NCBI GenBank assembly: GCA_030390025.1
Contig: CM059432.1
Coordinates: 4,030,001 to 4,094,000 of the forward strand
DNA from: Squalus acanthias
Lineage: Eukaryota
DNA length: 64,000 nucleotides
Direction: 5' to 3'
A model generated the notes under the pieces. That model did not search any database and was not told the origin of the DNA. It saw nothing but the letters and a program-made list of their open reading frames with translations. Shown here in pieces: positions 3,001 to 29,769 of this stretch (positions are counted from its first letter, which is position 1; each line of letters opens with the position of its first letter). Made by a program: the position numbers and the translations under genes.

Positions 3001-5420
3001 TAGAATCATAGAACGGTTAAAGCACGGAAGGAGGCCATTCGGCCTGTTGAGCCCGTGCCGGCTCTCTGCAAGAGCACTTCAGCTAGTCCCACTCCCCCCG
3101 CCCTTTCCCCGTAGACCTGCAAATTCTTTTCTTTCAGGTATTTATCCAACTTCCTTTTGAAAGCCACGATTGAATCAGCCTCCACCACCCTCTCGGGCAG
3201 TGCATTCCAGATCCTAACCATTCGCTGCGTAAAAAAGTATTTTCTTATGTCGCCTTTGGTTCTTCTGCCAATCACCTTAAATCTGTATCCTTTGGTTTTC
3301 GACCTTTCTGCCAATGGGAACAGTTTCTCTCTATCTACTCTGTCCAGACCCCTCATGATTTTGAACACCTCGATCAAATCTCCTCTCAATGATTTGTGCA
3401 CATATACCCCTAGGTCTCTCTGTTCATGCACCCCCTTTAGGATTGTACCCTTTAGTTTATATTCCCTCTCCTCATTCTTTCTACCAAAATGTATCACTTC
3501 ACACTTTTCTGCGTTAAATTTCATCTGCCACGTGTCCACCCATTCCACCAGCCTGTCTATGTCTTCCTGAAGTCTATCATTCACTCCTCACTGTTCACTA
3601 TACTTTCAAGTTTTGTGTCATCTGCAAATTTTGAAATTGTGCTCTGTACTCCCAAGTCCAAGTCATTTATATATCAAGAAAAGCAGTGGTCCTAGAACCG
3701 ACCCCTGGGGAACACCACTGTATACCTTCCTCCAGTCCGAAAAACAACCGTTCACCACTACTCTCTGTTTCCCGTCACTTAGCCAATTTCGTATCCATGC
3801 TGCCACTGTCCCATTTATTCCACGGGCTTCAACTTTGCTGGCAAGCCTATTATGTGGCACTTTGTTGAAAGACTTTTGGAAGTCCATGTACACCACATCA
3901 ACTACACTGCCCTCATCAACACTCTCTGTTACCTCATCAAAAAACTCAATCAACTTAGTGAAACACAATTTGCCTTTTACAAATCCGTGTTGGTTTTCCT
4001 TAATTAATCCACACTTGTCCAAGTGACTGTTAATTTTGTCCTGATTATTGTTTCTAAAAGCTTCTCCACTACTGAGGTTAAACTGACCGGCCTATAGTTG
4101 CTGGGTTTATCTTTACACCCTTTTTTGGACAATGGTGTAACATTTGCAATTCTCCAATCCTCTGGCACCACCCCTGTTTCTAAGGAGGATAGGAAGATTA
4201 TGGCCAGTACCTCCACGATTTCTTCCTTCGCTTCCCTCAGCGTCCTAGGATGCATCCCATCTGGTCCTGGTGACTTACAGCCAGCCTTTCTAGTACCTCC
4301 TCTTTATCAATTTTTATCCCATCCAATATCTCCTCTACCTCCTCCTTCAGAAGTGGGGATGTTCACTGATGACTGCACAGTGTTCAGCGCCATTCACAAC
4401 TCCTCAGATAATGAAGCAGTCCATGCCCGCATACAGCAAGACCTGGACGACATTCAGGCTTGGGATGATAAGTGGCAGGTAACTTTCGCGCCACACAAGT
4501 GCCAGGCAATGACTATCTCCAACATGCGAGCGTCTAACCATCGCCCCTTGACATTCAGCGGCATTACCATCACTGAATCCCCCACCATCAATATCCTGGG
4601 GGTCACCATTGACCAGAAACTTAACTGGACCAGCCACATAAATGCTGTGGCTTCAAGAGCAGGTCAGAGGCTGCGTATTCTGCAGCGAGTGTCTCACCTT
4701 CTGACTCCCCAAAGCCTTTCCACCATCTACAAGGCACAAGTCAGGAGTGTGATGGAATTCTCTCCACTTGCCTGGATGAGTGCAGCTCCAACAACACTCA
4801 AGAAGCTCGACACCATCCAGGACAAAGCAGCCCGTTTGATTGACACCCCATCCACCATCTTAAACATTCACTCCCTCCACCACCAGCGCACCGTGGCTGC
4901 AGTGTGTACCATCTACAAGATGCACTGCAGCAACTCGCCAAGGCTTCTTCGGCAGCACCTCCCAAACCCGCGACCTCTACCAGCTAGAAGGACAAGGGCA
5001 GCAGGCACATGGGAACACCACCACCTCCAAGTTTCCCTCCAAGTCGCACACCATCCTGACTTGGAAATATATCGGCGTTCCTTCATTGTCGCTGGGTCAA
5101 AATCCTGGAACTCCCTCCCTAACAGCACTGTGGGAGCACCTTCACCACACAGACTGCAGCGGTTCAAGAAGGCGGCTCACCACCACCTTCGCAAGGGCAA
5201 CTAGGGATGGGCAATAAATGCTGGCCTTGCCAGCGACGCCTACCTCCCATGGACGAATGGAAAAAAAACTATGTCTATGGCAGCATCTTCTTCCTTGAAG
5301 ACAGATGCAAAGTACTCATTTAGCAGCTCAGCCATACCCTCTGCCTCCATGCGTAGGTCTCCTTTTTAGCCCCTAATCGGCCCCACCCCTCCTCTTACTA
5401 CCCGTTTACTATTTATATTT
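3001..5420 (-). mobile_element. CR1 LINE ORF2 fragment (deleted, interrupted)
   Basis: RT motifs in ORFs 3006-3584, 3663-4022 and 4004-4255; (ATTCTATG)-type tail at about 3001. Confidence 0.88.
4347..5268 (+). mobile_element. Family B LINE 3' fragment inserted in a CR1
   Basis: RT C-terminal part (FTDDCTVF...WMSAAP), family 3' tail and A-run. Confidence 0.85.
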
Positions 5421-10630: not shown

Positions 10631-11919
10631 GGGCTGGATTTTGTCTTGGGGTCGGGTTGGGGTCGTGTAATCCGCATTTCGTGTTTCCCCCCCTACTCCA
10701 GATTAATGTGGATGCCTGATGCAATTTTCACTTAATTGGGCAATTGAGTTGGAGCATGTGGGAACCCATGAACTAATTAGCGTTTTCAGTCTGAAAGTCG
10801 CCTCTGATGATGTCATGAAATAGCCGAGCACTTAGCAAATGGGGACAGGATAGGACAGAGTCAACATGGATTTACAAAGGGTAAATCGTGCTTGACTAAT
10901 CTATTGGAATTTTTTGAGGGAGTAACTGGTAAAATAGATGGGGGAGAGCCAGTAGATGTGGTGTACCTGGACTTCCAAAAGGCCTTCGATAAGGTCCCAC
11001 ATAAAAGATTAGCATGGAAAATTGAAGCTCATGGGATAAAGGGGAAAGTATTGACGTGGATAGAGAACTGGCTGTCAGATAGAAAACAGAGAGTTGGAAT
11101 AAACGGCTCATTTTCTGAATGGCAGGCAGTAACAAGTGGGGTACCACAGGGATCTGTCCTGGGTCCCCAGCTGTTCACAATTTATATTAATGACCTGGAT
11201 CAGGGAGTCGAATGTAGCATTTCCAAATTTGCAGACGACACTAAACTAGGAGGGGGGGTGGGCTCAGAGGAGGAGACCAGGAAGCTCCAGAGCGATTTGG
11301 ACAGACTGGGTGATTGGGCGGATAAATGGCAGATGCACTATAATGTGGACAAGTGCGAAGTTATCCACCTTGGGTGCAGGAACGGGAGGGCAAATTATTA
11401 TTTAAATGGCAATAAATTGGGAGAGGGGGAAGTACAGAGAGACCTGGGTGTTCTTGTACACCAGTCACTGAAGGCGAGCATGCAGGTGCAACAGGCGGTC
11501 AAGAAGGCAAACGGTATGCTGGCCTTCATAGCAAAAGGGTTGGAATACAGGAACAGGGATACCTTGCTGCAGCTGTACAGGGCACTGGTGAGACCACACC
11601 TCGAGTACTGTGTACAGTTTTGGTCGCCTCATCTGAGGAAAGATGTTCTTGCCATGGAGGGGGTGCAGCGGCGATTCACCAGGCTGATACCAGGAATGGC
11701 GGGATTGACCTATGAGGAGAGACTATGTAGTTTAGGGATGTACACACTGGAGTTTAGAAGATTGAGAGGGGACCTCATAGAAGTGTATAAAATTCTGACA
11801 GGTCTAGACAGATTAGATGCAGAAGGATCATTGCTGACTGCCTAGTCTCAGAGACTGTTGGTGAGAGAGGACCTGCCTGGCTTTTGATGTGAGTGGACCT
11901 GGATGCAAAAATGGCGGGG

Positions 11920-15800: not shown

Positions 15801-16207
15801 ACCTATTTGGTAGCACTTTCACCTCTGAGTCAGAAGGTTGTGGGTTCAAGTCCCACTCCAGAGAATTGAACACAAAATCCAGGCTGGACCAGCCACATAA
15901 ATACTGTGGCAACAAGAGCAGGTCAGAGGCTAGGTATTCTGCGGCGAGTGTCTCACCTCCTGATTCCCCAAAGCCTTTCCACCATCTACAAGGCACAAGC
16001 AAGGAGTGTGATGGAATACTCTCCACTTGCCTGGATGAGTGCAACTCCAATAACACTCAAGAAGCTCGACACTATCCAGGACAAAGCAGCCCGCTTGATT
16101 GGCACCCCATCCACCACCTTAAACATTCACTCCCTCCACCTCCGGCGCACCGTGGCTGTAGTGTGTACCATCTACAAGATGCACTGCAGCAACTCGCCAA
16201 GGCTTCT

Positions 16208-17899
16208 TGTAAGGGTTTTTGTCTCTCAGCCTGTGAGATTCGTGTGGCTCTGTGCAGCCCGGATGCTAGTGCGGGTTTAGGCCTTGTTGCCTGTTCTGGT
16301 CTCCAGCCAGTCTGGGAGCACTAGACACACCTGTGAGTGGTTCGACCCACTCGCCCTTACGGTTCTAGACACTGGACTTAGATGCGAGAGCAGTAATGGA
16401 GATGAAACTCAGGTAGACTCGGTTGAATGGTCCGAAATGGAAAATCTTTATTGCATATTATTTAAGATTACGAAATACATGTCATAAGCACAGATTAATG
16501 ACAGTACAATCTTACACGCAGTTATGTAATTAATTTCAGGAAAACGAGGAACGAACGACACATCGTAAATGGGGGCACACATTACAATTATCCTTAATAC
16601 TTAAAACCCTCCCCTATCAATATCTGTCCTAAGCTAGATTCGTAGGATTCGAGACTCATGCTCACCACTCGTGATAACTCGGAGAATTCCGAAAACTCTG
16701 ATCGGATGTTTTTCACCGCAGCGCCCACGTGTCGATCAGGGGGTCTCCTGGCCCCACTTGTTTACTCGTTTCTGCTCCGGCTAGCAGGCTGGAACGTCTG
16801 CTGTCATGAAGATCTGTGTTGTCCTTGGAGTTCCGACTATACTCAAAAAAGAGTCTTCCTGTGCCCTCACACCGGTTCGATAAAATTCGAAAAATAGTCT
16901 TCCTGTGTCAGTTCTGTAGAACTCAAAGAAGTCTTCCTGGCAAGGAAAATGTCTATTCGACCTACAGGCGCGGTCGGAGCTTACTGACCGTGGCGATAAG
17001 TATGGTCTTCTTCTCTTCTCATCTCATCTCATCTCATCTCATCTCATCTCGGGCCTTCGGTTCCAACACCGTTTACCGACTTATCGGGATGGTGTGCCCG
17101 CTTCAAGGCTTCAGAGCCCAGTTCTACACAGGTCTTCGCGACACGACACGAAGTAGATCCGAGCGGATCATAAAGTTCAACAGTCTTTTGAAAAAAGACA
17201 CGAGGCAAGCAGGAACAAGACGGTGAGTCAAGAGCAGCCACGAGGATAAACACCAGCAAGATAAGAGAAAGATGGACGGTTGGAGCTTGTAATTATAGTG
17301 CAAAATCTTCTGTTTCCCGCCCAACCTTAATGTCTTTCCTTTTGTTAGGGTTTGGCGCTCAAATGTCTTGTATAGGGTGATCTTCGTTTTAATGGGTTTC
17401 GGGGCTACTCGTAAATGTCTGAGTACCTGTTAATATTTCTCCCATTGTTTAATCGGTCGGTGTTCTCCCTGGAGGGGTTTTGGGGCTTCCAAATGTTTTC
17501 TGTAACTACCCGCTAACGGCTCTCTCATCGTAGAGTCGTTGGGATTTTACATATTAATGTCTTTGGATGGGTTCTTGATTACTTGGTACAACAGCCCTCA
17601 TTCGCACCTGGGAGACCGATTTCAGTATTTATGTGTATACTGTGAACCCATGATGTCTCGTGTATTATCTTCAATGTGCTGAGCCTTAATCGATCTTGCA
17701 CAAATGTTTATTGGAACGCCATCTTGTCTGCCTGTCGAAAAGTCTAGAATGTTCCGCCACGAGGCGTGGCGGCCATTTTACAAGCTGCTTGTGTCCACTT
17801 TGAAAACCTGACAGCATTCTGCTGAAATAAAAGCTGTTTGAATGAAACTATGTGTTTTTCTCCTTATTAATAAAATCACGATATATTGCGAATTCTACA
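16208..17899 (-). repeat. 3' LTR (1692 bp)
   Basis: Direct repeat of the 5' LTR with about 10 substitutions seen by eye and one fewer ATCTC unit (17021-17050); preceded by the PPT. Confidence 0.96.
16447..16452 (-). terminator. Polyadenylation signal in the 3' LTR
   Basis: AATAAA about 240 nt from the LTR end; also at 27601-27606 and in the solo LTR at 37982-37987. Confidence 0.6.
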
Positions 17900-17911
17900 G
17901 TCCCTCCTGTT
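17900..17911 (-). promoter_or_regulatory. Polypurine tract
   Basis: AACAGGAGGGAC immediately precedes the TGTAG start of the 3' LTR on the minus strand. Confidence 0.8.
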
Positions 17912-18352
17912 GATGCGAATAACTCCGCTTATCGTATCAAAAATATTGTGGCGAGCAATATTATCTCGATTTTCTCCGAATCCAGAAAATTTAATCCCAT
18001 AACTTAAACTATCTAGGGTCTTTGCGTCGTCCTTATTTCCCAAGAAAATTACATTTTATATCACCGTAGGCATCATTTGCCTTTAAACTTACACCACTTG
18101 TTTTCCTTCCAGGCGCAACCAGGCCGATGCCTCTCGTATCACCTGTATATTCACATTTTTATTTAGGGAAAGGAAAAACAAAACAAAACCAAACAATCAT
18201 TTTTTTTTTTAACTACAACACCATCACCAAAATAATCAACACCAACTCTTAAGACATGTCGAGTTCCAAACGTATTTACAGTCTTTGAAAATCATGAGCG
18301 AGTACAAACTTCCGCGGCGCACGTGGCGAGCGGGAGTGACGCCATTTTCCGA

Positions 18353-20704
18353 TTACACGGTGCTTTCATCGTGCACGCGCACGTAACGTTCTCGCCACTC
18401 TCCCGTGTTTTCGTGTTTGGTGAGGCGTTTGCCTCTCTTACAATGTACGATCAATAGGTACACTACAATAAAAACTTGGCATACGACTAAAATGTGGGAG
18501 GCTATTCTGATCCATGAAGGCACTTCAATATTGGTGAACAGATTCCACCACGGTGGAATTACTATATCCAGAATGTCTGTCCCTATTTCGACAGTTTTCT
18601 GTTCGAGTGCGTAAAAATGTTTCTGTGACACCGCGACGGCTTTGAAAAGCTTGGTGAGGTGTTCAGGGAGAGGGGGAATGAGGTATCCGAAATGCGCGAC
18701 GAATCGCTGCAAGTCGGTGAAATTCTCTTTTACTGTTAGATGAACAGTGGATGGTTCAGGGATTGGGACAATTCGCTGTTGTGCTACTTGAACTTCCGCC
18801 CTGGGTTTGAAACAGAAACTGCTGTCACTCACTGGACACCGGCTACGGTTTCCATGCTGGTAGTGTTGCGCTGCAGTGGTAACACAATATGTTCCACCCC
18901 CGATGTATGCTACCTGCGGAGGCACATGATCTTGTGCCATTGCCTCCATGGTGCAATTCATGGACTTGGCGCCAGCCGTTCTGAACCCGCACTGAGGTGT
19001 TAAAAAGGCATTCAAGTGCTGGGGACACAGTATTATGTGTGCTCCCCTGCCACGACAACCAGAGAGATCTGTACCTGTCATCGTTTGCTCCCAGCGGATG
19101 ACGTAAGGTGGAACCGCTGCATAGCGAATGTGGGCTCCCCCCTGAATGACACCAATGTTCTCTACCCGATACACCGGGGCGGGCTTTGCTGTGTCGCCCA
19201 AAACCGGCATACGTAGTACTATACCCATGATAGTATGGTTTGATCGTCCGCAGTCCACGGGGACTGGGTATGCTTCTGAAGCTAGCCTGAGCTGGCACGG
19301 GCTTAATGCGTTCTGAAAAGGGTGGAGCGCCCGCAGGTGTTTGTTACTTATCCAGGACGGGACCAAACCTTGTTTTAAATCCTCCAAATTACTGCGGCCC
19401 TCGCCCAGTAATCACGCCCCGTAAAGCACGCACACCTCATTCTGCGCAGCTTGATCGGATGCATTCCGATCTTCCCTAATCAGGGCATTTACCGTCTTTG
19501 CATGTTTCTCTAACTCTGCGATAATTTCCTTTAAATGGAGAGTCATGGCTTGGTCCTCGTGTAAACCCGACCCAACCACTTTATTTTCATCTGTTAGAAT
19601 GTCTTTTAATTGTGTCTTTAAACCATTAATCTGGGTCTGTAGCTCCACACTGTCTAGAGCGTTGACCACAGATGTACCCGTGTTAAACGCAGTGAACGCG
19701 TCGTTTACTACACCCCTTCTTTGCCTCTCTACTTGATCCAAAACTTCATGTGGTGCGGTGTACAAACTTGTTTTATCAATTTCCGCGAAATCGAATTCGT
19801 AAAATTGTCTGAACATCTTGGTCAACAGGACCTGATATAACTGTTCCGTCTTTTTGGGGCACCACTCTGGTAACCGCACCTCGGTGAGATTTAAAATCAC
19901 CGAGGCCACCGCGTAATGTACCCCCTGAAATAGTATCTGGTCTGTGGGGACCAGTACCAAACCATTCCCGAGTCCCTTACTAGTTTTAGGGCACCCTTCC
20001 TCTTCAGCTAGAACCACCGGAATCGTGGGCGGGGCTTTGCGTGGGCGCGTAATGAGCTCAGTGGCATTTACCGGGATCGAAGAGTATGGGGCTCCGCACC
20101 CCCTGGTGCTTGCATCCCACCTCATCCCCTGTCCGTTATCCTGCCATTGATTAATGAAAAATATGGAGATGCCTTTGGGGCAAGCGTACTTTGACCCCCA
20201 CATGCATACATAAATTCCCTCATCCGGTTCCCACCATTTGTCCCAACAGACTCTCACTTGTCCGTTTGTCCCCGTAATTGTCCGATGGGTATTATTACCC
20301 AGTCGTTCCCACTCGACCGAAGAGTTCCTCATGTTTTTGCTCAGCTTTCGCAGCCACCACCATCGGCTCAATGGGACATTCCCATTACAAGTCAAACAAA
20401 TCCGTTTGCCGACGGTGACGCTGATCCTGGGTGCGATGATCCTTACTTTGGGGCACATTAAAGAAGTCTCTTGGTAGGCAAACCCCGATGTGCTAGAATA
20501 CTCCGTTGAGTTCGTTCCCAGCCATCCTGGCCACCTTCCCTTGTGGAAATAGGTGGTGGTCTCCTCAGCCTCCCGCCTTCCGGTCCCATCCACCGCGATG
20601 GGGGCCGTGTCCCCGGAGCATCCAAACACCACGACATCCTTGGTGCGGCCTCGATAGGCCAATCCACATCCGATTGCCGCGAGCAATACTAGAATTCGTT
20701 CCAT
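18353..20704 (-). pseudogene. env: Env class I fusion glycoprotein (F-protein-like), 783 codons with one internal TGA at 19412-19414
   Basis: ORFs 19412-20821 and 18353-19387 share a frame. Signal peptide MERILVLLAAIGCGLA; furin site RQRR (19715-19726); then GVVNDAFTAFNTGTSVVNAL, a heptad repeat, a Cys-rich beta region, TM segment ILVVCQVFIVVYLLIV and a basic stop-transfer KRGKR. Confidence 0.88.
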
Positions 20705-20717
20705 CCTTCCTTGGTTC

Positions 20718-20740
20718 CTGTGATCAGATAGAATGAGGTA
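20718..20740 (-). promoter_or_regulatory. Candidate env splice acceptor
   Basis: TACCTCATTCTATCTGATCACAG|G lies 13 nt upstream of the env ATG (AGGATGG). Confidence 0.55.
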
Positions 20741-21021
20741 GCCAGCCTCGCAAGAGTCTCTGGCTTTTGTGAAGGGTGAGCGGATCCCCTGACCTCGCCT
20801 CACGTAAACTTCAATGTTCACTAAATAAACTTTAACTAGACCTATCTCTAACTCCCATCATTTTACCATTTTTTGTTAAAATTAAACTACAAACTTAACC
20901 TTATTTAAAACTATAAACTTATAACCTTAAACTTAGAAACTTAGAAACTTATAAACTTAGAAACTTATCCTAAACTTAAACTTATTACTGTACAGCACCG
21001 CCCGTTCCCAGGGCGGCCCCT

Positions 21022-24000
21022 TTAAATTCTGAGAAGGCTGCTGCGAGCTCTTCCCGACGGTGGGAGGGCACTGACCCCGTCCTTTGATCTGCCGCAGCCT
21101 GTGGCTGCACTGACCCCTTCCTTTGATCTGCCGCAGCCTGTTGCTGCTGCGATGGGACTGGGCCCTACTTGGGCTGCCTTAACCTTGAGTCTACGCCTTG
21201 GGGCAGTCTGGGGCCATGACCACATCTTCCTGGGCTGGGGTGCTCTACTTGACCTACGAGGAGTTGTCGGGGGCAGGAATCCCAGGACCGACGGACCGGG
21301 TTTCGAGACTTTCACCGGGACGACCTGTGGTCCCACCACAGTCGCTGGCTCCGCCTCCCCTGACTCCGCCTCCCTGACCTCGGGACTTGCAGCTTGTGGC
21401 ACCGCCCTGCTCGGCCCAGCAGGCGGCCCTTCCCTCGCAATCCCTACCTCCCCCGAGGGCAGGACGTTCAAGGCGGGCGGCTCGGGCTCTGAGGTTTCCG
21501 CCGTCACGCCCTGTGGTCTCACAGCGGCTGGCTCCGCCTCCCCTAGCTCCTCCCTCCTGTGTTCGGGACCTGCAGCCTCGGTGTCCACCCTGTGTGGATC
21601 TCTATCTGCAGCCCCTGTCCTCCCTATACCTGAATCGGGGGCGACCCTTGCGTTCCCCGATTCCCACTCGTCCTCATCACTATCCTCATCTGACTCGAGT
21701 TCCGGGAACTCTCCCTCATCTGACTCCCAACCCCACAAAAATGTTTCACAATTCACCAGGATGTCTCCTCCCCTGATGCAAGCTGCTTTGCCTGCCTGTG
21801 TGCCTTGTGGTCCTACCTGGGGCTGCGAGTCCCCACTCGCAGGTTTTGCCCCTGTGGTTTTCCCTTGTGCACCTGGCTTGTACAATTTGCACTGGTTTAC
21901 GTGGAACCACTTAGTGCGCCAAGGTATCTTTACGGCGTATACCATGGGACTCGCCTTATCTACAATGTTGTAGGGTCCCATATACAGTGGTTCCAGACTC
22001 CCTACTCTGGCGTAGTTTCTGACCATAACCTGGTCTCCTACTTCCCACTCCCGCGTTTTGCGGGGTTCCAGCAACAGGCGATTGCCCTGATGCTGCCTTC
22101 CCATGTTCCCAGCCGCCTGCTCATAAACCTGCTTCAGGCGCTCCAAGAGGGTCTGGGCGAACTTGTCCCTGCTTATCTCTTGGAGCTGACCCTCAGTGAG
22201 CACCGGCGCTAGCACATGGGTGGGGGTTCGCATGAGCCTCCCAGTCATCACCTCGTGCGGGGAGTACCCCGTACTTTTTGACTGACTGGCCCGGACCCCC
22301 ATGAGGACTAAAGGCAGAACTTCCGCCCATTTTTGGGGCGAGTTCCTAGTCTCTTTCCTCAGTTTCTCCTTCAGGGTCCGGTTCATGCGTTCAACAATCC
22401 CGGATGACTGGGGATTGTGTGCTACGTGCCACTTCCCTTCAATGCCCAAAAGCATGAGGGTGTTCTGCATCACCTGGCCGGTGAAATGACTCCCCTGGTC
22501 CGACTCCACAAAACAGGGGAGTCCCCACCGCGAGAACACTTCCCTGACCAAGATTTTTGCAGTACCCAGTGCCGTAGCTGTTCGACAGGGGAAGGCTTCC
22601 ACCCATTTGGAAAACACATCCACCAAGACGAGGCAGTATTTATAGCCTCCCTGGGTGGTGGGCAGGGGCCCTATATAGTCGATCTGTATCGACTGCCATG
22701 GTCCCTCTACCCTTCTTACGTGCCCCATGGGCACTTTCCTTTTCTGGGGGTCTGGGTTGTTTGCAGCGCACACGAGACAGTTTGCACAGAACTCGCGGAC
22801 CTGTTCCCTGAGCCCTGGCCACCATCCCGCTTGCTCTACCCGTTGCCAGGTAACCTCGGGCCCGGGGTGCCCTGCCCCTGGTCCCTCGTGAGCCAACTGG
22901 AGGAATTCCCTCCTGTGCTGCTGCGGCACAACCCACTGCTCCTCGCGGAACAGCATGCCTTCCCTAACGGAGAGGGTTGCCGTACTGTACGGACCCTCTA
23001 CTTGCTTCCCCTCAGCAATGGTTTTTAGGACTGCTTTTAGGGCGGGATCCTGGGTTTGGACGGTCTTAAGGTCTAGGGGCAATGCTACCCTGGAGTTCCC
23101 GGGATTCCCGTCCCTGCCTTGGATCGCTGCCATGGGTCTGGTCCCATAGGGGTCCCAGAAAATGCCGTTGCGGGCACCTTCCCTGGCTAGCGCATCCGCC
23201 TGCTGGTTGCCCTCCCCACGGGGCTCTGTGGAGGAGTGAGCCTTCACCTTATGGATGAAAATCTCCCCTTCCTCCCCTACTGCTGCTAGGATCTTTTCCA
23301 GCAAGGGCTTCACCGTTAAAGGTCGCCCGTCCGCGGAGGTGTATCCACGGCGGGACCAAATGGCCAGGTATTCCGTACACGAATTACATGTGAACATACT
23401 GTCCGAGCAAATCGTGTATGGGGTTGGGAAAATGTCTGGGTGGGTAACAACGTACACCACTGCAGACAGCTCAGCCTGCTGCGCGCTCATGGTGCTTGGG
23501 AGCTTGATCGCCAGGGCAAGGTTTGCCGCAGGGTCATAAACTCCACACCCTGTGAGTCGTTCGCCAGCAGATACTGTGCTAGAACCATCAACATAAATCT
23601 CGCGCCCAGTGGGATGTATCCCGGCCCGCAAACCTATGTTGACGTCCCACACCCCTTCCACCGAACATCGGTGGGCTGTACCGGGGTATACCAAATTGGC
23701 CGCAAGCCTGGGCTCGCAAAGACCTTTTACTCTAAGATCCAGCTGGGAAAGAAGAAGGGTCCAGCGCGCAATACGCACGCTGCTTACGGTCCCATCTTTA
23801 ATCCTCCCATCTAAAAGCATCTTAGTTGGTGTGTGCTGGGTGAGGAGAGTGATGGGAGAGAGCCCTGTGAAGATCGCTGATCTTTTCACAGCCCAATGCG
23901 TGGCTAAAAGGTGCCTTTCGCAATTGGAGAAACTCCTCTCCACATCCGTTAACACCCTGGACGAATAGACAACCGGCCTCAGCTTGCCGTGACGCTCTTG

Positions 24001-25548
24001 GAGCAGCACAGCGCTCAAGCTGTCCCCGCTGGCAGCTACCTCCAGGAAAAACTCCTTCCCCCCATCTATGGCCCCTAAAGCTGGCGCGGTCTGCAGATCC
24101 CTTTTTAACTTCTCGAAGGCTGCTTGGCAGCCCTCGTCCCAAGACCGCTCCACTCCCTTATGGAGGAGTCGGAGGAGCGGCGCCGCTGTGGCCGCATAGT
24201 CTTCGATAAAATCCCTGCAGTAACCGGTCAGTCCCAAGAAGGACCTCACACCCCTTATGGTGTTGGGAATCGGTAACTCTTGCACCGACTCCCTCCTAGC
24301 CTTATCTATGGCTCTTTCCCCAGCGCGAATGGTCAGCCCCAGGAATTTTACTTCCTGCTGACCGATACGTGCTTTCTTAGGATTTACTTTAAAACCCTTT
24401 CTCGCTAGCAGCTCCAATAACTCGGCCAGCAGTGGTCCATGCTCCTCCCTTGAGTCCGTAAATAGGAGCAAATCATCCACGTACTGCACTATCTGATTGG
24501 GCTGACTAAACTCCTTTAAACTTCCTGCCATACACTGATGGAAAATACTGGGGCTGTTGTGGAAACCCTGTGGCAGACAGTTCCATGTGTACTGTTGTCC
24601 TTTGAAAGTAAAGGCAAACTTGTACTGGTCCTCTCGCCGCAGCGGGATGGACCAAAAACCGTTCGAGATATCCAGCACCGTGAACGTGGTCGCGGACGCT
24701 GGGATACTCCCTATTAGGTCAGCAACTGCTGCTACCGTGGGCGCGCAGGCGGGAATGTTACTGTTAAGGACTCTGTAGTCCACCGTGGCCCTCCACGAAT
24801 TATCCGGCTTCCTAACCGGCCATAATGGGGAGTTCACGTGTGTGGCTATTGGCCTCAACACGCCCTGCTGCACCAAGGAGGACATTGCTGTCTCCATATC
24901 GGGTTCTGCTTCTTTGGGGAAGTTATACTGTTTTTGGGGCCGGGTCATGGGGTCCCCATCTACGCTGACCTCAAACCCGGTAACCCTCCCACAATCGTGC
25001 TTGTGGGTTGCAAACGCGTGCATATTATCTGACACGTACGCTTGCATGTCCGTTGGGACATCTGCGACCATGAGCCCAAGGTCGTAGCCTCCGGATGGCT
25101 GCATGGTACACAGGACCCCTGTTTCTTCCTCCCCCGGAATTACCACTACCTCGCCTTCTTCAATCTTAGCCCCCCAGAGACAGTGATTTCTGAGGTCCAC
25201 GAGGATCCCGTGTCCTGATAGGAGATCGGACCCGAGGATACCTCTTCCACCCCCCTCCTGCCATTCCATCAGTATGCACTTCCACTTGATGTGAAGTGCT
25301 CCCAAACGAATGGATAGCGGAAGGGAGAACGCGCCAGCCTGTTCTTTTCCCGTGAACCCCGCTAATGTGAATGGGACCTTGGTAGATAGCGGCGAGTCAA
25401 AAGGGCTATCTGTATGAATCACGGTGCAAGAAGCTCCCGTGTCCAACAAATAACTGCCCTTCTGTTTCTCTACCTCCATTTCCACCAGGGGTCGCTTCCA
25501 CGCATCATAGCTGAGCGGACACAGGTAGACGGGCTGCGCGGGCTCTAG
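21022..25548 (-). CDS. pol: Pol (protease, RT, RNase H-like tether, RNase H, integrase, C-terminal extension), 1508 codons in frame with gag
   Basis: Protease RPLV...LLDTGA (DTG 25435-25443). RT LDISNGF/LPQGF/YVDD (24472-24483). RNase H YVDGSS/AELSA/SDS/HKVKAH/QADALA. IN HHCC, IDYIG/SDQG/VERMN and GPY. No stop between the gag TGA and the listed GTG start at 25485. Confidence 0.95.
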   Translation of the reverse strand, partial: LEPAQPVYLCPLSYDAWKRPLVEMEVEKQKGSYLLDTGASCTVIHTDSPFDSPLSTKVPFTLAGFTGKEQAGAFSLPLSIRLGALHIKWKCILMEWQEGGGRGILGSDLLSGHGILVDLRNHCLWGAKIEEGEVVVIPGEEETGVLCTMQPSGGYDLGLMVADVPTDMQAYVSDNMHAFATHKHDCGRVTGFEVSVDGDPMTRPQKQYNFPKEAEPDMETAMSSLVQQGVLRPIATHVNSPLWPVRKPDNSWRATVDYRVLNSNIPACAPTVAAVADLIGSIPASATTFTVLDISNGFWSIPLRREDQYKFAFTFKGQQYTWNCLPQGFHNSPSIFHQCMAGSLKEFSQPNQIVQYVDDLLLFTDSREEHGPLLAELLELLARKGFKVNPKKARIGQQEVKFLGLTIRAGERAIDKARRESVQELPIPNTIRGVRSFLGLTGYCRDFIEDYAATAAPLLRLLHKGVERSWDEGCQAAFEKLKRDLQTAPALGAIDGGKEFFLEVAASGDSLSAVLLQERHGKLRPVVYSSRVLTDVERSFSNCERHLLATHWAVKRSAIFTGLSPITLLTQHTPTKMLLDGRIKDGTVSSVRIARWTLLLSQLDLRVKGLCEPRLAANLVYPGTAHRCSVEGVWDVNIGLRAGIHPTGREIYVDGSSTVSAGERLTGCGVYDPAANLALAIKLPSTMSAQQAELSAVVYVVTHPDIFPTPYTICSDSMFTCNSCTEYLAIWSRRGYTSADGRPLTVKPLLEKILAAVGEEGEIFIHKVKAHSSTEPRGEGNQQADALAREGARNGIFWDPYGTRPMAAIQGRDGNPGNSRVALPLDLKTVQTQDPALKAVLKTIAEGKQVEGPYSTATLSVREGMLFREEQWVVPQQHRREFLQLAHEGPGAGHPGPEVTWQRVEQAGWWPGLREQVREFCANCLVCAANNPDPQKRKVPMGHVRRVEGPWQSIQIDYIGPLPTTQGGYKYCLVLVDVFSKWVEAFPCRTATALGTAKILVREVFSRWGLPCFVESDQGSHFTGQVMQNTLMLLGIEGKWHVAHNPQSSGIVERMNRTLKEKLRKETRNSPQKWAEVLPLVLMGVRASQSKSTGYSPHEVMTGRLMRTPTHVLAPVLTEGQLQEISRDKFAQTLLERLKQVYEQAAGNMGRQHQGNRLLLEPRKTREWEVGDQVMVRNYARVGSLEPLYMGPYNIVDKASPMVYAVKIPWRTKWFHVNQCKLYKPGAQGKTTGAKPASGDSQPQVGPQGTQAGKAACIRGGDILVNCETFLWGWESDEGEFPELESDEDSDEDEWESGNARVAPDSGIGRTGAADRDPHRVDTEAAGPEHRREELGEAEPAAVRPQGVTAETSEPEPPALNVLPSGEVGIAREGPPAGPSRAVPQAASPEVREAESGEAEPATVVGPQVVPVKVSKPGPSVLGFLPPTTPRRSSRAPQPRKMWSWPQTAPRRRLKVKAAQVGPSPIAAATGCGRSKEGVSAATGCGRSKDGVSALPPSGRARSSLLRI

Positions 25549-27357
25549 TCATTGGGTATGGTTAGACGGGCCTGCGGCACCTACGGGGCCGGTCGCAACC
25601 GCCACCTTTCCATGTGCACTCATAAAGTTGCGCATGGCTCCCAACACTGTTTCGAGGTCGTCGGGAGGGGTGGGTGCACTAGCTTCCCTAACAGAGACAG
25701 GCATCTGGGCTCGGGCTGCGGGATTTTTATCCCTGGAATCCTTCCAAGGGTTCCTGCAGTTCTTGCGCCAGTGCCCTGTCCTCCCACACCCGTAACAAGC
25801 ATTACTTGCCTGCGGGGCGCGGTTACCCTCCTGATGCCACTCCTTTTGAGCCGGGGCTGCGGGTTGTACCTCATGTACTTTTCCCTTAAGGGGACGTGTT
25901 CCCATACCCCTTATATTGCGGTATCCTACCGTGAGTCGATTTAAGACCGACTCTTCCGTAATGTTGGGGTCAGTGGGATCAAACCACGCTTTTGCCTGCT
26001 CTCTGACGGCTGGCAAACTGTTGGCTACTATACACCTGAGCCAATGAGTTAAACCGACGCCGTCCACAGCGTCGCGCTCCGGCGCACCTGGACAGCTGCG
26101 CTGATATACTGGCCACAGCCTGTTGGCAAAAACCTTCGGGGGTTCTCCCTCCATCTGCACTGTCTGTCCCACTCTAACAAACGGACCTTCATCGTCCGTC
26201 CCCAACACTTCTAGGACCTCATTTTTTAATGCCTCATAGGTCTTGGTTCCCCTCTTGCTCTCGTCCGAGAGACACTGAAGGATTGAACTGCCTAACGAAA
26301 ATAACAGCATTTTTGCTGTTTCCCCATCGTCGCAGCCGTTAATGGCTGCGGTTTGCTCAACTTCTCTAAAATGTACGGAAGGGTCGTCTGACTCGGTCAG
26401 CTTCCGTACGTGATTTATCATAACTCTCAGCTGGTGTGAGCTGTGAGGCAACACAAGCTGGTTGAGGAGAACCCCTGGTTCCTCCCCACCGTTTCTGTTT
26501 GGGCCCCTTTTTATACCCGTAACTGGACACAACGGTCCCTTTTCCACTTCTTCCTCAGTGGGCTCTTTCGTTTCTTCTACTACTTCCTCCCTTACCCAGG
26601 TTTCCGAATAGCTGGGTGGCGCGGAGGGCGTAGTGGCTAATACTTCCTTTGCTTTACTTGGTGGGAATTTCTGAGACTCCTCATCTACTAGCGGCTGGTG
26701 TGCTGACGGACTGATAAGGCACACCATGCCGTGCGCTTTGTTCACGGCCCTTTTAAGGTGTTCTATCTCCTTTTGGCAGACGCTATGATCGGCCCCCTGA
26801 AATTTATCCTCAAGGGCCATCTTATATGCCGCCCTAACCCCCGTTAAGCTCTCTTCCTGGGCTCTTATTTGGGCAGCTTGGCGGGCACATCGTTCCTTTA
26901 GTCTGCCCTCACTTAACTTTGCCTCAGTGACCTGACACTCGAGGTCATCTATTTTTGCTTTATGGTGACTGGTGATTTCCTGGCGTTCTCGGTGCAGCGC
27001 ACTTAAATTCCTAATGAGCAACTCCCCTCCAGAGACCTTCTCATCCATTTCCTCCTCTAAATGCCTGATCCGAGCAGTTTGCGCTGTAATGACCTGGTTT
27101 GAAATCTGGACCTGCCTTTTGTAACACATTAACCAGACTGCTTTCTTGACTGTATTTTTATGTTCCTTACTATCTATCCACCTCTCGGCTGCCTCTAGTG
27201 GACACTTATCCGCTAACAGGTCACTTATCCATTTCTTAGTTAGATTTACCTTTCCGAACACATAATCTGCTATCTTTTCCTGCATAACATTTCGTACATT
27301 CACACCAAAGTCTAACACACTACCCTCTCGCTGCCAGTGTCCTGCCGCGGTCGCCAT
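25549..27357 (-). CDS. gag: Gag polyprotein, 602 aa
   Basis: Intact ORF with ATG in AAAATGG context; coiled-coil-like N-terminal half; PSAPPSY late-domain motif (26608-26628); CCHC knuckle CYGCGRTGHWRKNC (25756-25797); ends TGA. Confidence 0.92.
   Translation of the reverse strand: MATAAGHWQREGSVLDFGVNVRNVMQEKIADYVFGKVNLTKKWISDLLADKCPLEAAERWIDSKEHKNTVKKAVWLMCYKRQVQISNQVITAQTARIRHLEEEMDEKVSGGELLIRNLSALHRERQEITSHHKAKIDDLECQVTEAKLSEGRLKERCARQAAQIRAQEESLTGVRAAYKMALEDKFQGADHSVCQKEIEHLKRAVNKAHGMVCLISPSAHQPLVDEESQKFPPSKAKEVLATTPSAPPSYSETWVREEVVEETKEPTEEEVEKGPLCPVTGIKRGPNRNGGEEPGVLLNQLVLPHSSHQLRVMINHVRKLTESDDPSVHFREVEQTAAINGCDDGETAKMLLFSLGSSILQCLSDESKRGTKTYEALKNEVLEVLGTDDEGPFVRVGQTVQMEGEPPKVFANRLWPVYQRSCPGAPERDAVDGVGLTHWLRCIVANSLPAVREQAKAWFDPTDPNITEESVLNRLTVGYRNIRGMGTRPLKGKVHEVQPAAPAQKEWHQEGNRAPQASNACYGCGRTGHWRKNCRNPWKDSRDKNPAARAQMPVSVREASAPTPPDDLETVLGAMRNFMSAHGKVAVATGPVGAAGPSNHTQ
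27339..27356 (-). promoter_or_regulatory. Primer-binding site, tRNA-Arg(UCG)
   Basis: TGGCGACCGCGGCAGGAC is the 18-nt complement of the vertebrate tRNA-Arg(UCG) 3' end ...GTCCTGCCGCGGTCG-CCA (tRNA sequence recalled, not searched); it lies 5 nt downstream of the 5' LTR. Confidence 0.85.
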
Positions 27358-27361
27358 TTTC

Positions 27362-29058
27362 TGTAAGGGTTTTTGTCTCTCAGCCTGTGAGATTCGTGTG
27401 GCTCTGTGCAGCCCGGATGCTAGTGCGGGTTTAGGCCTTGTTGCCTGTTCTGGTCTCCAGCCAGTCTGGGAGCACTAGACACACCTGTGAGTGGTTCGAC
27501 CCACTCGCCCTTACGGTTCTAGACACTGGACTTAGATGCGAGAGCAGTAATGGAGATGAAACTCAGGTAGACTCGGTTGAATGGTCCGAAATGGAAAATC
27601 TTTATTGCATATTATTTAAGATTACGAAATACATGTCATAAGCACAGATTAATGACAGTACAATCTTACACGCAGTTATGTAATTAATTTCAGGGAAACG
27701 AGGAACGAACGACACATCGTAAATGGGGGCACACATTACAATTATCCTTAATACTTAAAACCCTCCCCTATCAATATCTGTCCTAAGCTAGATTCGTAGG
27801 ATTCGAGACTCATGCTCACCACTCGTGATAACTCGGAGAATTCCGAAAACTCTGATCGGATGTTTTTCACCGCAGCGCCCACGTGTCGATCAGGGGGTCT
27901 CCTGGCCCCACTTGTTTACTCGTTTCTGCTCCGGCTAGCAGGCTGGAACGTCTGCTGTCATGAAGATCTGTGTTGTCCTCGGAGTTCCGACTATACTCAA
28001 AAAAGAGTCTTCCTGTGCCCTCACACCGGTTCGATAAAATTCGAAAAATAGTCTTCCTGTGTCAGTTTTGTAGAACTCAAAGAAGTCTTCCTGGCAAGGA
28101 AAATGTCTATTCGACCTACAGGCGCGGTCGGAGCTTACTGACCGTGGCGATAAGTATGGTCTTCTTCTCTTCTCATCTCATCTCATCTCATCTCATCTCA
28201 TCTCATCTCGGGCCTTCGGTTCCAACACCGTTTACCGACTTATCGGGATGGTGTGCCCGCTTCAAGGCTTCAGAGCCCAGTTCTACACAGGTCTTCGCGA
28301 CACGACACGAAGTAGATCCGAGCGGATCATAAAGTTCAACAGTCTTTTGAAAAAAGACACGAGGCAAGCAGGAACAAGACGGCGAGTCAAGAGCAGCCAC
28401 GAGGATAAACACCAGCAAGATAAGAGAAAGATGGACGGTTGGAGCTTGTAATTATAGTGCAAAATCTTCTGTTTCCCGCCCAACCTTAATGTCTTTCCTT
28501 TTGTTAGGGTTTGGCGCTCAAATGTCTTGTATAGGGTGATCTTCGTTTTAATGGGTTTCGGGGCTACTCGTAAATGTCTGAGTACCTGTTAATATTTCTC
28601 CCATTGTTTAATCGGTCGGTGTTCTCCCTGGAGGGGTTTTGGGGCTTCCAAATGTTTTCTGTAACTACCCGCTAACGGCTCTCTCATCGTAGAGTCGTTG
28701 GGATTTTACATATTAATGTCTTTGGATGGGTTCTTGATTACTTGGTACAACAGCCCTCATTCGCACCTGGGAGACCGATTTCAGTATTTATGTGTATACT
28801 GTGAACCCATGATGTCTCGTGTATTATCTTCAATGTGCTGAGTCTTAATCGATCTTGCACAAATGTTTATTGGAACGCCATCTTGTCTGCCTGTCGAAAA
28901 GTCTAGAATGTTCTGCCACGAGGCGTGGCGGCCATTTTACAAGCTGCTTGTGTCCACTTTGAAAACCTGACAGCATTCTGCTGAAATAAAAGCTGTTTGA
29001 ACGAAACTATTTCTTTTTCTCCTTATTAATAAAATCGCGATATATTGCGAATTCTACA
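27362..29058 (-). repeat. 5' LTR (1697 bp)
   Basis: Minus-strand termini TGTAGAATT...CCCTTACA; direct repeat of 16208-17899; followed by the PBS; (ATCTC)7 at 28175-28209. Confidence 0.96.
28449..28481 (-). promoter_or_regulatory. Candidate LTR core promoter (GC box plus TATA-like)
   Basis: GGGCGG (28476-28481) then TATAATTA (28449-28456); same arrangement conserved in the diverged solo LTR (34222-34227, 34248-34252). Confidence 0.5.
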
Positions 29059-29769
29059 TTCTTCGGCAGCATGTCCCAAACCTGCGACCTCTTCCACCTA
29101 GAAGGACAAGGGCAGCAGGCGCATGGGAACACCACCACCTCCAAGTTCCCCTCCAAGTCACACACCATCCTGACTTGGAAATATATCGGCCGATCCTTCA
29201 TCATCACTGGGTCAAAATCCTGGAACTCCCTCCCTAACAGCACTGTGGGAGTACCTTCACCACACGGACTGCAGCGGTTCAAGAAGGTGGCTCACCACCA
29301 CCTTCGCAAGGGCAATTAGGGACGGGCAGTAAATGCTGGCCTTGCTAGCAATGCCCACATCCCATAAACGAATAAAAAAAACACTCCAGTGCCGTACTGA
29401 GGGAGTGCTGCACTGTCGGAGGTGCCGTCTTTCAGATGAGACGTTAAACCGAGGCCCCGTCCGCTCTCCCAGGTGGACGCAAACAATCCCAGGGCCACTA
29501 TTTCAAAGAAGAGCAGCGATTCTGGGCCAATGTTTGTCCCTCAACCAGCACCACTAAAACAGATTATCGGTGCATTATCTCATTGCTGTCTGTGGGAGCT
29601 TACTGGCTGCTGCGGTTCTTGCATTACAACGGTGACCGCACTTCAAAACGTACTTCATTGGCTGTAAAGAGCTTGGGGACGTCCTGAGGTTGTGAAAGGT
29701 GCTGTGTGGGTGCAAGTTTTTCTCTTTTGTTTTCTTTTACCAAACAGCTGTTAGCCAGAGCAGTACAAT

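Follow-up and report, generated by a model that had tools for sequence, protein, structure and literature searches.

An endogenous retrovirus (ERV) of Squalus acanthias, found in a 64,000-nucleotide stretch of the genome (the window), encodes an envelope glycoprotein (Env) in which residues 85-189 very probably have an immunoglobulin (Ig)-type fold; every line of sequence and structure evidence is concordant, but each stays below threshold. We regard this domain as the Ig-type head of a class I Env, old and under selection, and as most likely the exposed receptor-binding part, a reading to which we assign a probability of roughly 0.6. Retroviral and F-type fusion proteins are textbook cases of the coupling of receptor binding to membrane fusion, and an Env headed by a canonical Ig-type module would add a new architecture to them; it might also be an instance of a retrovirus capturing a host domain. 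In a vertebrate group about whose viruses hardly anything is known, such a module would also offer a way into receptor usage and host range. The earlier note on this DNA had placed an Ig-superfamily (IgSF) domain in the Env surface subunit, and that proposal holds up: a beta-sandwich of Ig type is predicted in the part that precedes the cleavage site, and it is conserved in sister copies and in other species.

The provirus and its env gene

The provirus (Table 1) is flanked by a 4-bp target-site duplication, TTCT, at 16204-16207 and 29059-29062, its ends read TG...CA, and its two LTRs are 99.06% identical (10 mismatches and 2 gaps over 1701 aligned columns, blastn). The gag and pol genes share one frame with a single stop between them, which implies read-through. 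The true start of gag is uncertain because the first ATG (27357) overlaps the putative primer-binding site, and the zinc knuckle of its product matches Pfam zf-CCHC at E 0.0058, below the Pfam cut-off. Both the single gag-pol frame with its stop and the gag zinc knuckle set the element apart from foamy viruses. The Pfam domains of pol are RVP, RVT_1, RT_RNaseH_2, RNase_H, Integrase_H2C2 and rve, and against the PDB pol matched the reverse transcriptases of Ty3, MLV and foamy virus, the best ones about equally, as well as PFV integrase. The lineage is young, highly amplified and elasmobranch, with at least 150 near-identical copies in the S. acanthias genome, of which 140 have no stop within a 130-aa piece; hundreds of near-identical copies with many open env frames make it natural material for expression and structural work. 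Contigs of four runs cover the provirus, with no leader-env joint among them, and are uninformative on expression.

Table 1. Features of the provirus and of its env product, in window coordinates; residues are numbered along Env.
Feature	Position	Strand	Remarks and basis
Whole provirus, LTR-gag-pol-env-LTR	16208..29058	-	12,851 bp; direct repeats, blastn of the ends, reading of the ends
5' LTR (element orientation)	27362..29058	-	direct repeats, blastn, reading of the ends
gag open frame	25549..27474	-	stop-to-stop length 641 aa; zinc knuckle of CCHC type
pol	21022..25548	-	PR-RT-tether RNase H-RNase H-IN and a low-complexity tail of ~300 aa
env	18353..20704	-	783 codons, Met at 20704; one in-frame TGA in this copy
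Signal peptide, residues 1-17	20654..20704	-	hydrophobic MERILVLLAAIGCGLAY, read from the sequence
Pre-Ig segment, residues 18-84	20453..20653	-	conserved, 67 residues; alignments
Ig-like domain, residues 85-189	20138..20452	-	sequence, profile and structure-model searches
Pro-rich linker PRKAPPTIP, residues 221-229	20018..20044	-	sequence reading
Membrane-proximal part of the surface subunit, residues 230-326, then furin-type RQRR, 327-330	19715..20017	-	
Fusion-peptide-like segment and first heptad/helical region, residues 331-430	19415..19714	-	sequence reading only
In-frame TGA breaking env of this copy	19412..19414	-	codon 431
Transmembrane segment, residues 732-755	18440..18511	-	Kyte-Doolittle maximum at 732-738
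3' LTR	16208..17899	-	direct repeats, blastn, reading of the ends

A sister copy (L021:1061-3409) has a naturally open env, with W at the codon equivalent to the TGA, and the env start position is conserved in the sister subfamilies (alignment). As read from its letters, Env runs from the furin site through a fusion peptide, a heptad region, a Cys-rich stretch of ~220 residues and a second helical region to the transmembrane (TM) segment; the residues after RQRR are hydrophobic and rich in Gly, Ala and Thr, and 10 Cys lie between residues 425 and 631. The RQRR is kept in eight of nine aligned genome copies, the ninth (L037) having RQRS. The Ig-like domain lies before the Pro-rich linker, as had been claimed, but it does not directly follow the signal peptide: the conserved segment 18-84, modelled at low confidence by AlphaFold, intervenes.

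Evidence for an Ig-type fold

Read on the minus strand, 20156-20452 encodes Env residues 85-183 (numbered from the Met at 20704); the plus strand of the same interval yields nothing. All strings quoted in the earlier note, ISVTVGKRICLTC, WWW, VRVCWDKWW, DEGIYVC and PRKAPPTIP, occur in the minus-strand translation of env. The first of these carries the canonical B-strand Cys, C106, together with an extra Cys, C103. The proposed A'/B-strand pattern VxxGxxxxLxC is present and ends in C106, and the F-strand DxGxYxC corresponds to DEGIYVC, the Cys of which is C167, 61 residues further on as stated. The Trp cluster that was said to follow the first Cys at 9-11 residues is there, but WWW occupies 116-118 and thus stands 10-12 residues after C106. 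The extra Cys pair was correctly recognized as well and consists of C103 and C153 (in VRVCWDKWW), both conserved. The segment has the Cys(B)...Trp(C)...Cys(F) core of the IgSF with a spacing inside the usual 55-75 residues, and the F-strand D/E-x-G/A-x-Y-x-C and B-strand G-x-x-[VI]-x-L-x-C signatures are present, as DEGIYVC and VGKRICLTC in the window copy and in corresponding forms across all subfamilies. When all six frames of the window were searched for C-x(8-14)-W-x(30-65)-[DE]-x-[GA]-x-Y-x-C, the env Ig site alone was matched, in two overlapping forms, and 20 shuffled windows gave 0 matches.

Profile searches used an alignment, A4, of 33 Ig segments comprising the window copy, 26 genome copies (three other subfamilies) and six proteins from other sources. 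In the suggested Pfam check, Ig_3 (PF13927) was the sole recurrent family. At E<=1 it recognized 30 of the 33 members, all in one register and with a best E of 2.4e-4, but none rose above the curated cut-off, the window piece scoring 15.8 bits against 30 and no member reaching 30 bits. Ig_3 also matched seven of nine Envs. Against the PDB, the top match of the A4 profile was the Ig-V domain of CRTAM (E 0.019), in an alignment that spans the whole domain and keeps both Cys and DxGxYxC in register, and a smaller alignment, A2, likewise pointed to CRTAM Ig-V; PDB searches with the whole Env and with profile A3 gave no meaningful match. Aligned by hhalign to 29 bona fide host Ig_3 domains, A4 scored 20.4 (P 0.005, 73 columns, motifs in register) at an hhalign probability of only 7%, a score reached by none of 100 column shuffles (mean 12.0, sd 2.6, maximum 18.5). 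In the ESM Atlas, the named clusters listed for residues 84-190 were ig, V-set, I-set or Ig_3 (scores 0.89-0.91), the exception being the cluster at rank 3, which has no common family; the whole Env fell to one unnamed chordate cluster (0.83).

Structure prediction gave a similar picture. AlphaFold2 run on A4 produced an all-beta model with eight strands in the Ig order A'BCC'DEFG (A' 93-96, B 102-107, C 116-121, C' 133-135, D 141-146, E 149-154, F 163-169, G 177-182), but its confidence was middling (pLDDT 58.6 overall and 64-70 in the domain; pTM 0.52). A first model, of a 212-residue N-terminal piece, was all-beta too and, at pLDDT 41.5, too poor to be used alone. The 50 matches listed by Foldseek against the PDB were all Ig domains (best E 3.2e-3, probability 0.96-1.0), including antibody V, neuroplastin, basigin, embigin, sDscam, titin and Robo domains, and the poorer model again retrieved Ig domains; neither model gave a PDB match at E<=1e-3. 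The best Ig match by VIA had Z 5.6 and rmsd 3.3 A, with 95 of the 108 residues of a VL domain aligned. In the wide VIA search generic beta-sandwiches ranked equally (transglutaminase N-domain, Z 6.2; ZP-N, 5.9), and there was no Z>=8, the best values of 5.6-6.2 lying below the level that separates true relatives.

Conservation and origin of the domain

Within A4, C103, R114, W117, R119 and K120 are invariant and C106, C153, G163, Y165 and C167 are conserved at 90% or more, counts that are not independent since the rows are related copies. Every row covering the position has [DE] at -6 from C167. All four env subfamilies sampled in the genome retain the pattern, and the full motif set also occurs in ERV-derived proteins named from Rhinoraja longicauda (skate) and Pristiophorus japonicus (sawshark). 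Those from Rhincodon typus (whale shark) are fragmentary and stop short of the F strand, one (P0007) covering the Cys and Trp part only and another (P0010) ending before the domain. Loop positions differ between subfamilies and strands are fixed. The dN/dS of the Ig part, 0.10-0.32 at an unsaturated dS of 0.08-0.17 within one subfamily, indicates purifying selection. The Ig-like domain is old, selected and integral to this Env lineage, and is no one-copy accident.

Capture of the domain from the host, as put forward in the earlier note, found no backing: phmmer, run exhaustively against 1.84 billion representative proteins, returned ERV-env relatives and one bacterial protein only, and no host or viral IgSF relative. 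The bacterial match (P0009, a 5014-residue beta-helix repeat protein, to Env residues 22-88, E 1.6e-17) was judged spurious because its score is the sum of 16 weak repeats at 32% identity. Word-indexed protein searches yielded only 2, 2 and 8 relatives, all elasmobranch ERV fragments, and some ERV-fragment relatives are fused to host gene models (Niban-like, cadherin-related, zinc-finger). The accompanying label of an F-type fusogen was not confirmed either: Pfam PF00523 matched none of nine full or partial Envs at E<=10, and the linear layout alone, as read from the letters, may fit. Profile searching of the PDB with Env retrieved no F or foamy-virus Env chain; PF00523 had no match in the host genome either, under the stricter settings of a first look, which do not establish absence. 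The idea that the Ig segment is domain II of an F-like core was rejected, as both core Cys lie far upstream of the furin site; domain II is located mostly C-terminally in F and foamy-virus Env, according to PMC11468914. Rejected as well was a gamma-type Env: CX6CC and CWLC are absent, and CLTC, within the B strand of the Ig-like domain, is the sole CxxC.

It is possible, and we put it forward only tentatively, that an elasmobranch-wide, recently active retroviral lineage long ago acquired a host IgSF domain, from an adhesion molecule or an immune receptor, as an N-terminal addition to a class I fusogen of F/foamy type, with CDR-like Ig loops setting host range. If so, no earlier retroviral Env would be known to bind its receptor through a bona fide IgSF domain, and a receptor binder and an F-like fusion machine on one chain would show how F-type fusogens manage without a separate attachment protein.

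Alternative readings, proposed role and known relatives

An old viral beta-sandwich that converged on the Cys-Trp-Cys core, with no ancestry shared with host Ig and no capture, would be in keeping with homology scores that are all sub-threshold, with non-Ig sandwiches at equal Z in the wide structural search and with the lack of a donor among the 1.84 billion representatives. We nevertheless hold such a look-alike to be quite improbable, given that the signature set is complete, with its order and spacing correct (G-x-x-[VI]-x-L-x-C; Trp 10-12 on; [DE]-x-G-x-Y-x-C 61 after the first Cys) and that four independent detectors (Pfam, PDB profile search, hhalign against host domains and language-model features) point only to Ig families. 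That the residues form a chance constellation in a fast-evolving, unstructured part of Env is barely credible. The sub-threshold scores, and nothing more, speak for it; it is contradicted by the uniqueness of the motif in the window (and 0 in 20 shuffles), by conservation at 44-73% identity across lineages and by the dN/dS values, and the predicted model is all-beta.

Given the Ig fold, we infer a receptor-binding role with a slight preference over other functions; the conserved pre-Ig segment might just as well be what binds. The domain may instead serve as a structural cap, a glycan-bearing shield over the fusion machinery or an immune-modulating mimic of host IgSF proteins, the receptor being bound by the pre-Ig segment 18-84 or another part. 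In line with this, the pre-Ig segment is conserved like the Ig part in subfamily B (94% vs 94%), two N-glycan sequons (N127 and N137) lie within the domain, and its nearest neighbours among viral models in Foldseek are pox- and herpesvirus Ig-like immune modulators (best E 4.4e-3, not significant). Such a role is unlikely, however, for a domain that is anchored to a membrane fusogen and not secreted, showed no similarity to any particular host molecule in the phmmer search and combines variable loops with fixed strands, the pattern that host-range pressure on a contact surface would produce.

As a receptor-binding head, residues 85-189 would fold into a V/I-set-like beta-sandwich with strands A'BCC'DEFG, in which a buried Cys106-Cys167 pair packs on Trp117 and a second bridge, Cys103-Cys153, joins strands B and E; the disulfide pairing and the surface exposure are both presumed. 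Lying upstream of the furin site, in the surface portion of a class I Env, the domain would form the exposed head, or part of it, and contact a cell-surface receptor through the loops most variable between subfamilies (BC, C-C', D-E and F-G). After furin cleavage at RQRR, receptor binding may then release the C-terminal fusion subunit with its fusion peptide, two helical regions and TM segment.

Like the V/I-set domains of IgSF receptors (CRTAM Ig-V, PDB 4h5s/3rbg; basigin, embigin, neuroplastin; antibody VL), the domain is ~100 residues long, is built on a Cys(B)-Trp(C)-Cys(F) core and has D/E-x-G-x-Y-x-C in its F strand, and its predicted strand order agrees with theirs. It departs from them in its extra B-E Cys pair, its WWW and WDKWW tryptophan clusters, its place below every curated threshold and its setting in a viral fusogen rather than a host receptor, and identity is only 9-21% over the Foldseek alignments. 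The captured Ig-like proteins of pox- and herpesviruses (IL-1 and IFN receptor homologues, US3, RL11) are likewise virus-encoded and of IgSF-type fold, but in these large DNA viruses they act as immune modulators, either soluble or as membrane proteins in their own right, and none is in a fusion glycoprotein. A full-text literature search found no account of an Ig-type domain in a retroviral Env, the word 'immunoglobulin' having 0 occurrences in the lokiretrovirus, Odin, errantivirus and ERV-structure papers.

Among retroviral surface proteins, the gammaretroviral receptor-binding domain (RBD) offers a likeness: that of Friend MLV, reportedly described by Fass and colleagues in 1997, is said to be an antiparallel beta-sandwich, Ig-like and with variable loops, that lies N-terminally, ahead of a proline-rich region, and lacks the IgSF sequence signature. 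The shark Env differs from the gamma type in the absence of CWLC and CX6CC and in a fusion subunit of ~450 residues vs ~200, and from the F glycoprotein in an N-terminal subunit of 330 vs ~100 residues. Foamy-virus Env gp130 resembles it, according to PMC11468914, as a retroviral class I protein with a separate RBD in the surface part upstream of a furin site and a long fusion part, which there shares domains I-III with paramyxo- and pneumovirus F. In that paper, the foamy-virus RBD (residues 217-543) is non-Ig and inserted after the first domain III helix, and it is domain II, within the fusion core, that has the Ig fold; a PDB profile search gave no sequence similarity between the two Envs. 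Lokiretrovirus Env, as portrayed in Wang & Han 2020 (PMC7947760), likewise has a signal peptide, furin-type site, fusion peptide, coiled coil and TM segment, but it matches PF00523 (E 2.2e-7), unlike any of the nine Envs searched here. In the paper 'immunoglobulin', 'cartilaginous', 'shark' and 'Chondrichthyes' each have 0 occurrences. Lokiretroviruses as presented there also share with the shark ERV an aquatic vertebrate host and a pol with tether plus RNase H, recognized here as a dual RNase H by the Pfam pair RT_RNaseH_2 and RNase_H.

An immunoglobulin-like domain in the Env surface part

The earlier note had placed an immunoglobulin (Ig) superfamily domain at 20156-20452; the coordinates were correct, the coding strand being the minus strand, on which they correspond to Env residues 85-183. 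All strings quoted there were found in the minus-strand env translation, and the plus strand of the same stretch holds a frame broken by a stop and no recognisable feature. The canonical B-strand cysteine is C106, W116-118 follow 10-12 residues further on, and DEGIYVC terminates at C167, 61 residues past C106; C103 and C153 make up an extra cysteine pair. A six-frame search of the window with a regular expression for the Cys-Trp-[DE]xGxYxC constellation matched this site alone, and 20 shuffled windows gave no match.

An alignment of 33 Ig segments (A4) combined the window, six proteins from elsewhere and 26 of the 28 stop-free segments from env loci in the host genome, omitting L039 and L021 (the latter identical to the window's segment). 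C103, R114, W117, R119 and K120 are invariant, and C106, C153, G163, Y165 and C167 at least 90% conserved, across rows that are related copies and not independent events. The Pfam family Ig_3 (PF13927) scored 15.8 bits against the window piece (E 0.02; curated cut-off 30 bits) and was the sole recurring Pfam family, matching 7 of 9 Envs. Within A4 it aligned in one constant register and recovered 30 of the 33 sequences at E≤1 (the lowest E being 2.4e-4); no member of A4 or of the Envs reached 30 bits. Searched against all PDB sequences, the A4 profile ranked the CRTAM Ig-V domain first (E 0.019), in an end-to-end alignment that pairs both cysteines and the F-strand motif with their counterparts; ArfGAP1, ranked next (E 0.026), was rejected as CxxC noise. 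Of 30 genuine Ig_3 domains taken from the host genome, 29 were usable; aligned with these by hhalign, A4 scored 20.4 (P 0.005; hhalign's own probability 7%) across 73 correctly registered columns, compared with 12.0 ± 2.6 (maximum 18.5) for 100 column shuffles and 10.9 for the reversed alignment. Language-model features for residues 84-190 named ig, V-set, I-set or Ig_3 in 9 of the 10 named clusters listed (0.89-0.91); the cluster at rank 3 has no common family.

AlphaFold2 run on A4 gave an all-beta model (pLDDT 58.6 overall, 64-70 across the domain; pTM 0.52) with strands at Env residues 93-96, 102-107, 116-121, 133-135, 141-146, 149-154, 163-169 and 177-182, in the order A'BCC'DEFG. The best 50 Foldseek matches listed from the PDB were Ig domains only (best E 3.2e-3, with no match at E≤1e-3), and an earlier, poorer model gave the same picture. 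VIA-align superposed the model on antibody V domains with Z 5.6 (rmsd 3.3 Å, 95 residues) and, in a wide search, on generic sandwiches (the transglutaminase N-domain among them) with Z 6.2, both values below the tool's level for more than 'a common arrangement'. The Ig assignment of the earlier note is thus favoured by family matches, profiles, features, model and Foldseek alike, although none passes its formal threshold; with all lines concordant, we put the probability of an Ig-type fold at about 0.85.

Provirus and Env layout

The domain belongs to a complete, recently inserted provirus of ~12.9 kb, as seen from paired direct repeats of ~1.7 kb that differ by 10 mismatches and 2 gaps over 1701 columns (99.06% identity) and have TG...CA ends and TTCT flanks. 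Three long open frames, gag, pol and env, follow one another on the minus strand.

Features of the provirus and of the surrounding window
Feature	Position	Strand	Remarks
LTR repeat	16208-17899		starts TG, ends CA; TTCT on flank
LTR repeat	27362-29058		starts TG, ends CA; TTCT on flank
gag	25549-27474	minus	open frame
pol	21022-25548	minus	same frame as gag; one stop between them
env open frame	18353-20857	minus	Met used for numbering at 20704
TM segment	Env residues 732-755
RVT_1 reverse transcriptase frames (non-LTR remains)	4098-5204, 10811-11845, 34482-37171, 38363-39685, 42012-42980, 44645-45688, 58805-59926

Pol contains protease, reverse transcriptase (RT), a degenerate 'tether' RNase H, RNase H and integrase. 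Its RT matched solved structures of Ty3 (1e-70), MLV/XMRV (4e-69) and foamy-virus PR-RT (2e-63) about equally, and the best structural match of the integrase was PFV integrase (4e-33). The last ~300 residues of Pol (21022-21950, minus), beyond the integrase with its SH3-like portion, form a low-complexity tail in which Pro, Glu, Ser and Gly abound and GEAEPA-type units recur; an antisense open frame of 315 residues overlaps it. The first gag ATG (27357) lies inside a putative primer-binding site (27335-27361, minus) adjoining the 5' LTR and the frame remains open into the LTR, up to 27474, so a later Met is probably the true start. The remainder of the window is dense in non-LTR retrotransposon remains, one RVT_1 frame being accompanied by an Exo_endo_phos endonuclease.

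The env Met opens a signal-peptide-like MERILVLLAAIGCGLAY. The Ig-like domain had been described as lying between signal peptide and Pro-rich linker; the linker does follow it, but a conserved 67-residue segment (residues 18-84), unremarked at the time, intervenes on the other side. This segment (20453-20653, minus) gave 16 weak matches (32% identity; summed E 1.6e-17) to repeats of P0009, a bacterial protein of beta-helix type with 5014 residues; these matches are probably an artefact of composition or of the repeats. Downstream of a furin-type site, RQRR (residues 327-330), Env has in turn a hydrophobic stretch rich in Gly, Ala and Thr, a long region of helical appearance, ten cysteines within residues 425-631 and a second helical-looking region. 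The window's copy carries a single in-frame TGA (19412-19414), where a naturally open sister copy has Trp. A sequence scan of Env found neither CX6CC nor CWLC, and a gamma-type Env was therefore rejected.

Role and origin of the domain

The domain may bind a receptor, given its place in the N-terminal, pre-cleavage subunit, the Pro-rich linker after it, its variable loops and the analogy of other Envs. Foamy-virus Env, as described in PMC11468914, has a separate receptor-binding domain in the surface subunit and a fusion machine of domains I-III common to paramyxo- and pneumovirus F, domain II of this core being its Ig-fold element. We considered whether the Ig-like domain is this domain II and rejected the idea, because its two core cysteines are located well upstream of the furin site.

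Two further proposals of the earlier note are unproven. Capture from a host gene found no backing, as phmmer, run exhaustively over 1.84 billion representative proteins, returned no host IgSF protein. For an F-type fusogen, Fusion_gly (PF00523, the paramyxo-/pneumovirus F family) matched none of 9 Envs at E≤10 and nothing in the host genome in a stricter first look, and the PDB profile search gave no F or foamy-virus Env chain; lokiretrovirus Env, by contrast, matches PF00523 according to PMC7947760. Ig domains and cartilaginous fishes both go unmentioned in that paper, and 'immunoglobulin' does not occur in the main texts of the lokiretrovirus, Odin, errantivirus and ERV-structure papers. Full-text literature searches turned up no account of a retroviral Env with an IgSF domain, and we rate the feature as a class I ERV Env carrying a new head module.

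Copies, relatives and selection

A 130-residue piece around the domain occurs at 98-100% identity in at least 150 places of the 3.7-Gb host genome (from 5646 first-look candidates); among those listed, the piece is free of stops in 140, and ~37, counted by eye, lie in open frames of 847 residues. Searching with a 52%-identical relative gave another 150 places, 53-60% identical to that relative. Translation of 33 loci, five of them excluded for in-frame stops, revealed at least three further env subfamilies, which share about 60%, 51% and 50% identity with the window's own.

Comparisons inside a single subfamily, with dS unsaturated (0.08-0.17), gave dN/dS of 0.10-0.32 for the Ig part and a similar 0.12-0.24 for the rest of Env; between that subfamily and the window's family dS is saturated and the ratios are unusable. 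Substitutions between subfamilies, read from the alignment rows, are concentrated in the predicted BC, C-C', D-E and F-G loops, and the strands are fixed. The low ratios and this pattern argue that selection acted on the domain as the lineage spread, which would be expected if it was a functional component of an infectious or retrotransposing virus. Loci L034-L040, from one env subfamily, are 93-97% identical to one another over the pre-Ig and Ig parts and, in some pairs, 73-88% over the remaining surface part and the fusion subunit, a difference that hints at recombination between env lineages.

The phmmer search, made with Env residues 18-229, returned 10 proteins at E≤1e-3, nine of them ERV-env fragments and the tenth the bacterial repeat protein P0009, judged spurious; word-indexed searches added a few more. 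Named sources are Rhinoraja longicauda (skate), Pristiophorus japonicus (sawshark) and Rhincodon typus (whale shark), so that the Env lineage spans batoids and both shark superorders. The expectation that the motif set would recur across related Envs was borne out, for the whole set, in the skate, sawshark, JGI and Logan proteins; the whale-shark proteins are fragments, P0010 stopping short of the domain and P0007 short of its E and F strands. Three sawshark gene models (P0002, P0004 and P0011) join fragments of this Env to Niban-1-like, C2H2 zinc-finger and cadherin-related-5-like host genes, most likely annotation artefacts caused by ERVs inserted within or next to genes. Sequencing runs from several coded organisms (runs X1 and X5 versus X9 and X10) contain contigs that match the provirus at 99% or more, which suggests that more than one of the sampled organisms or individuals carries the same young ERV family.
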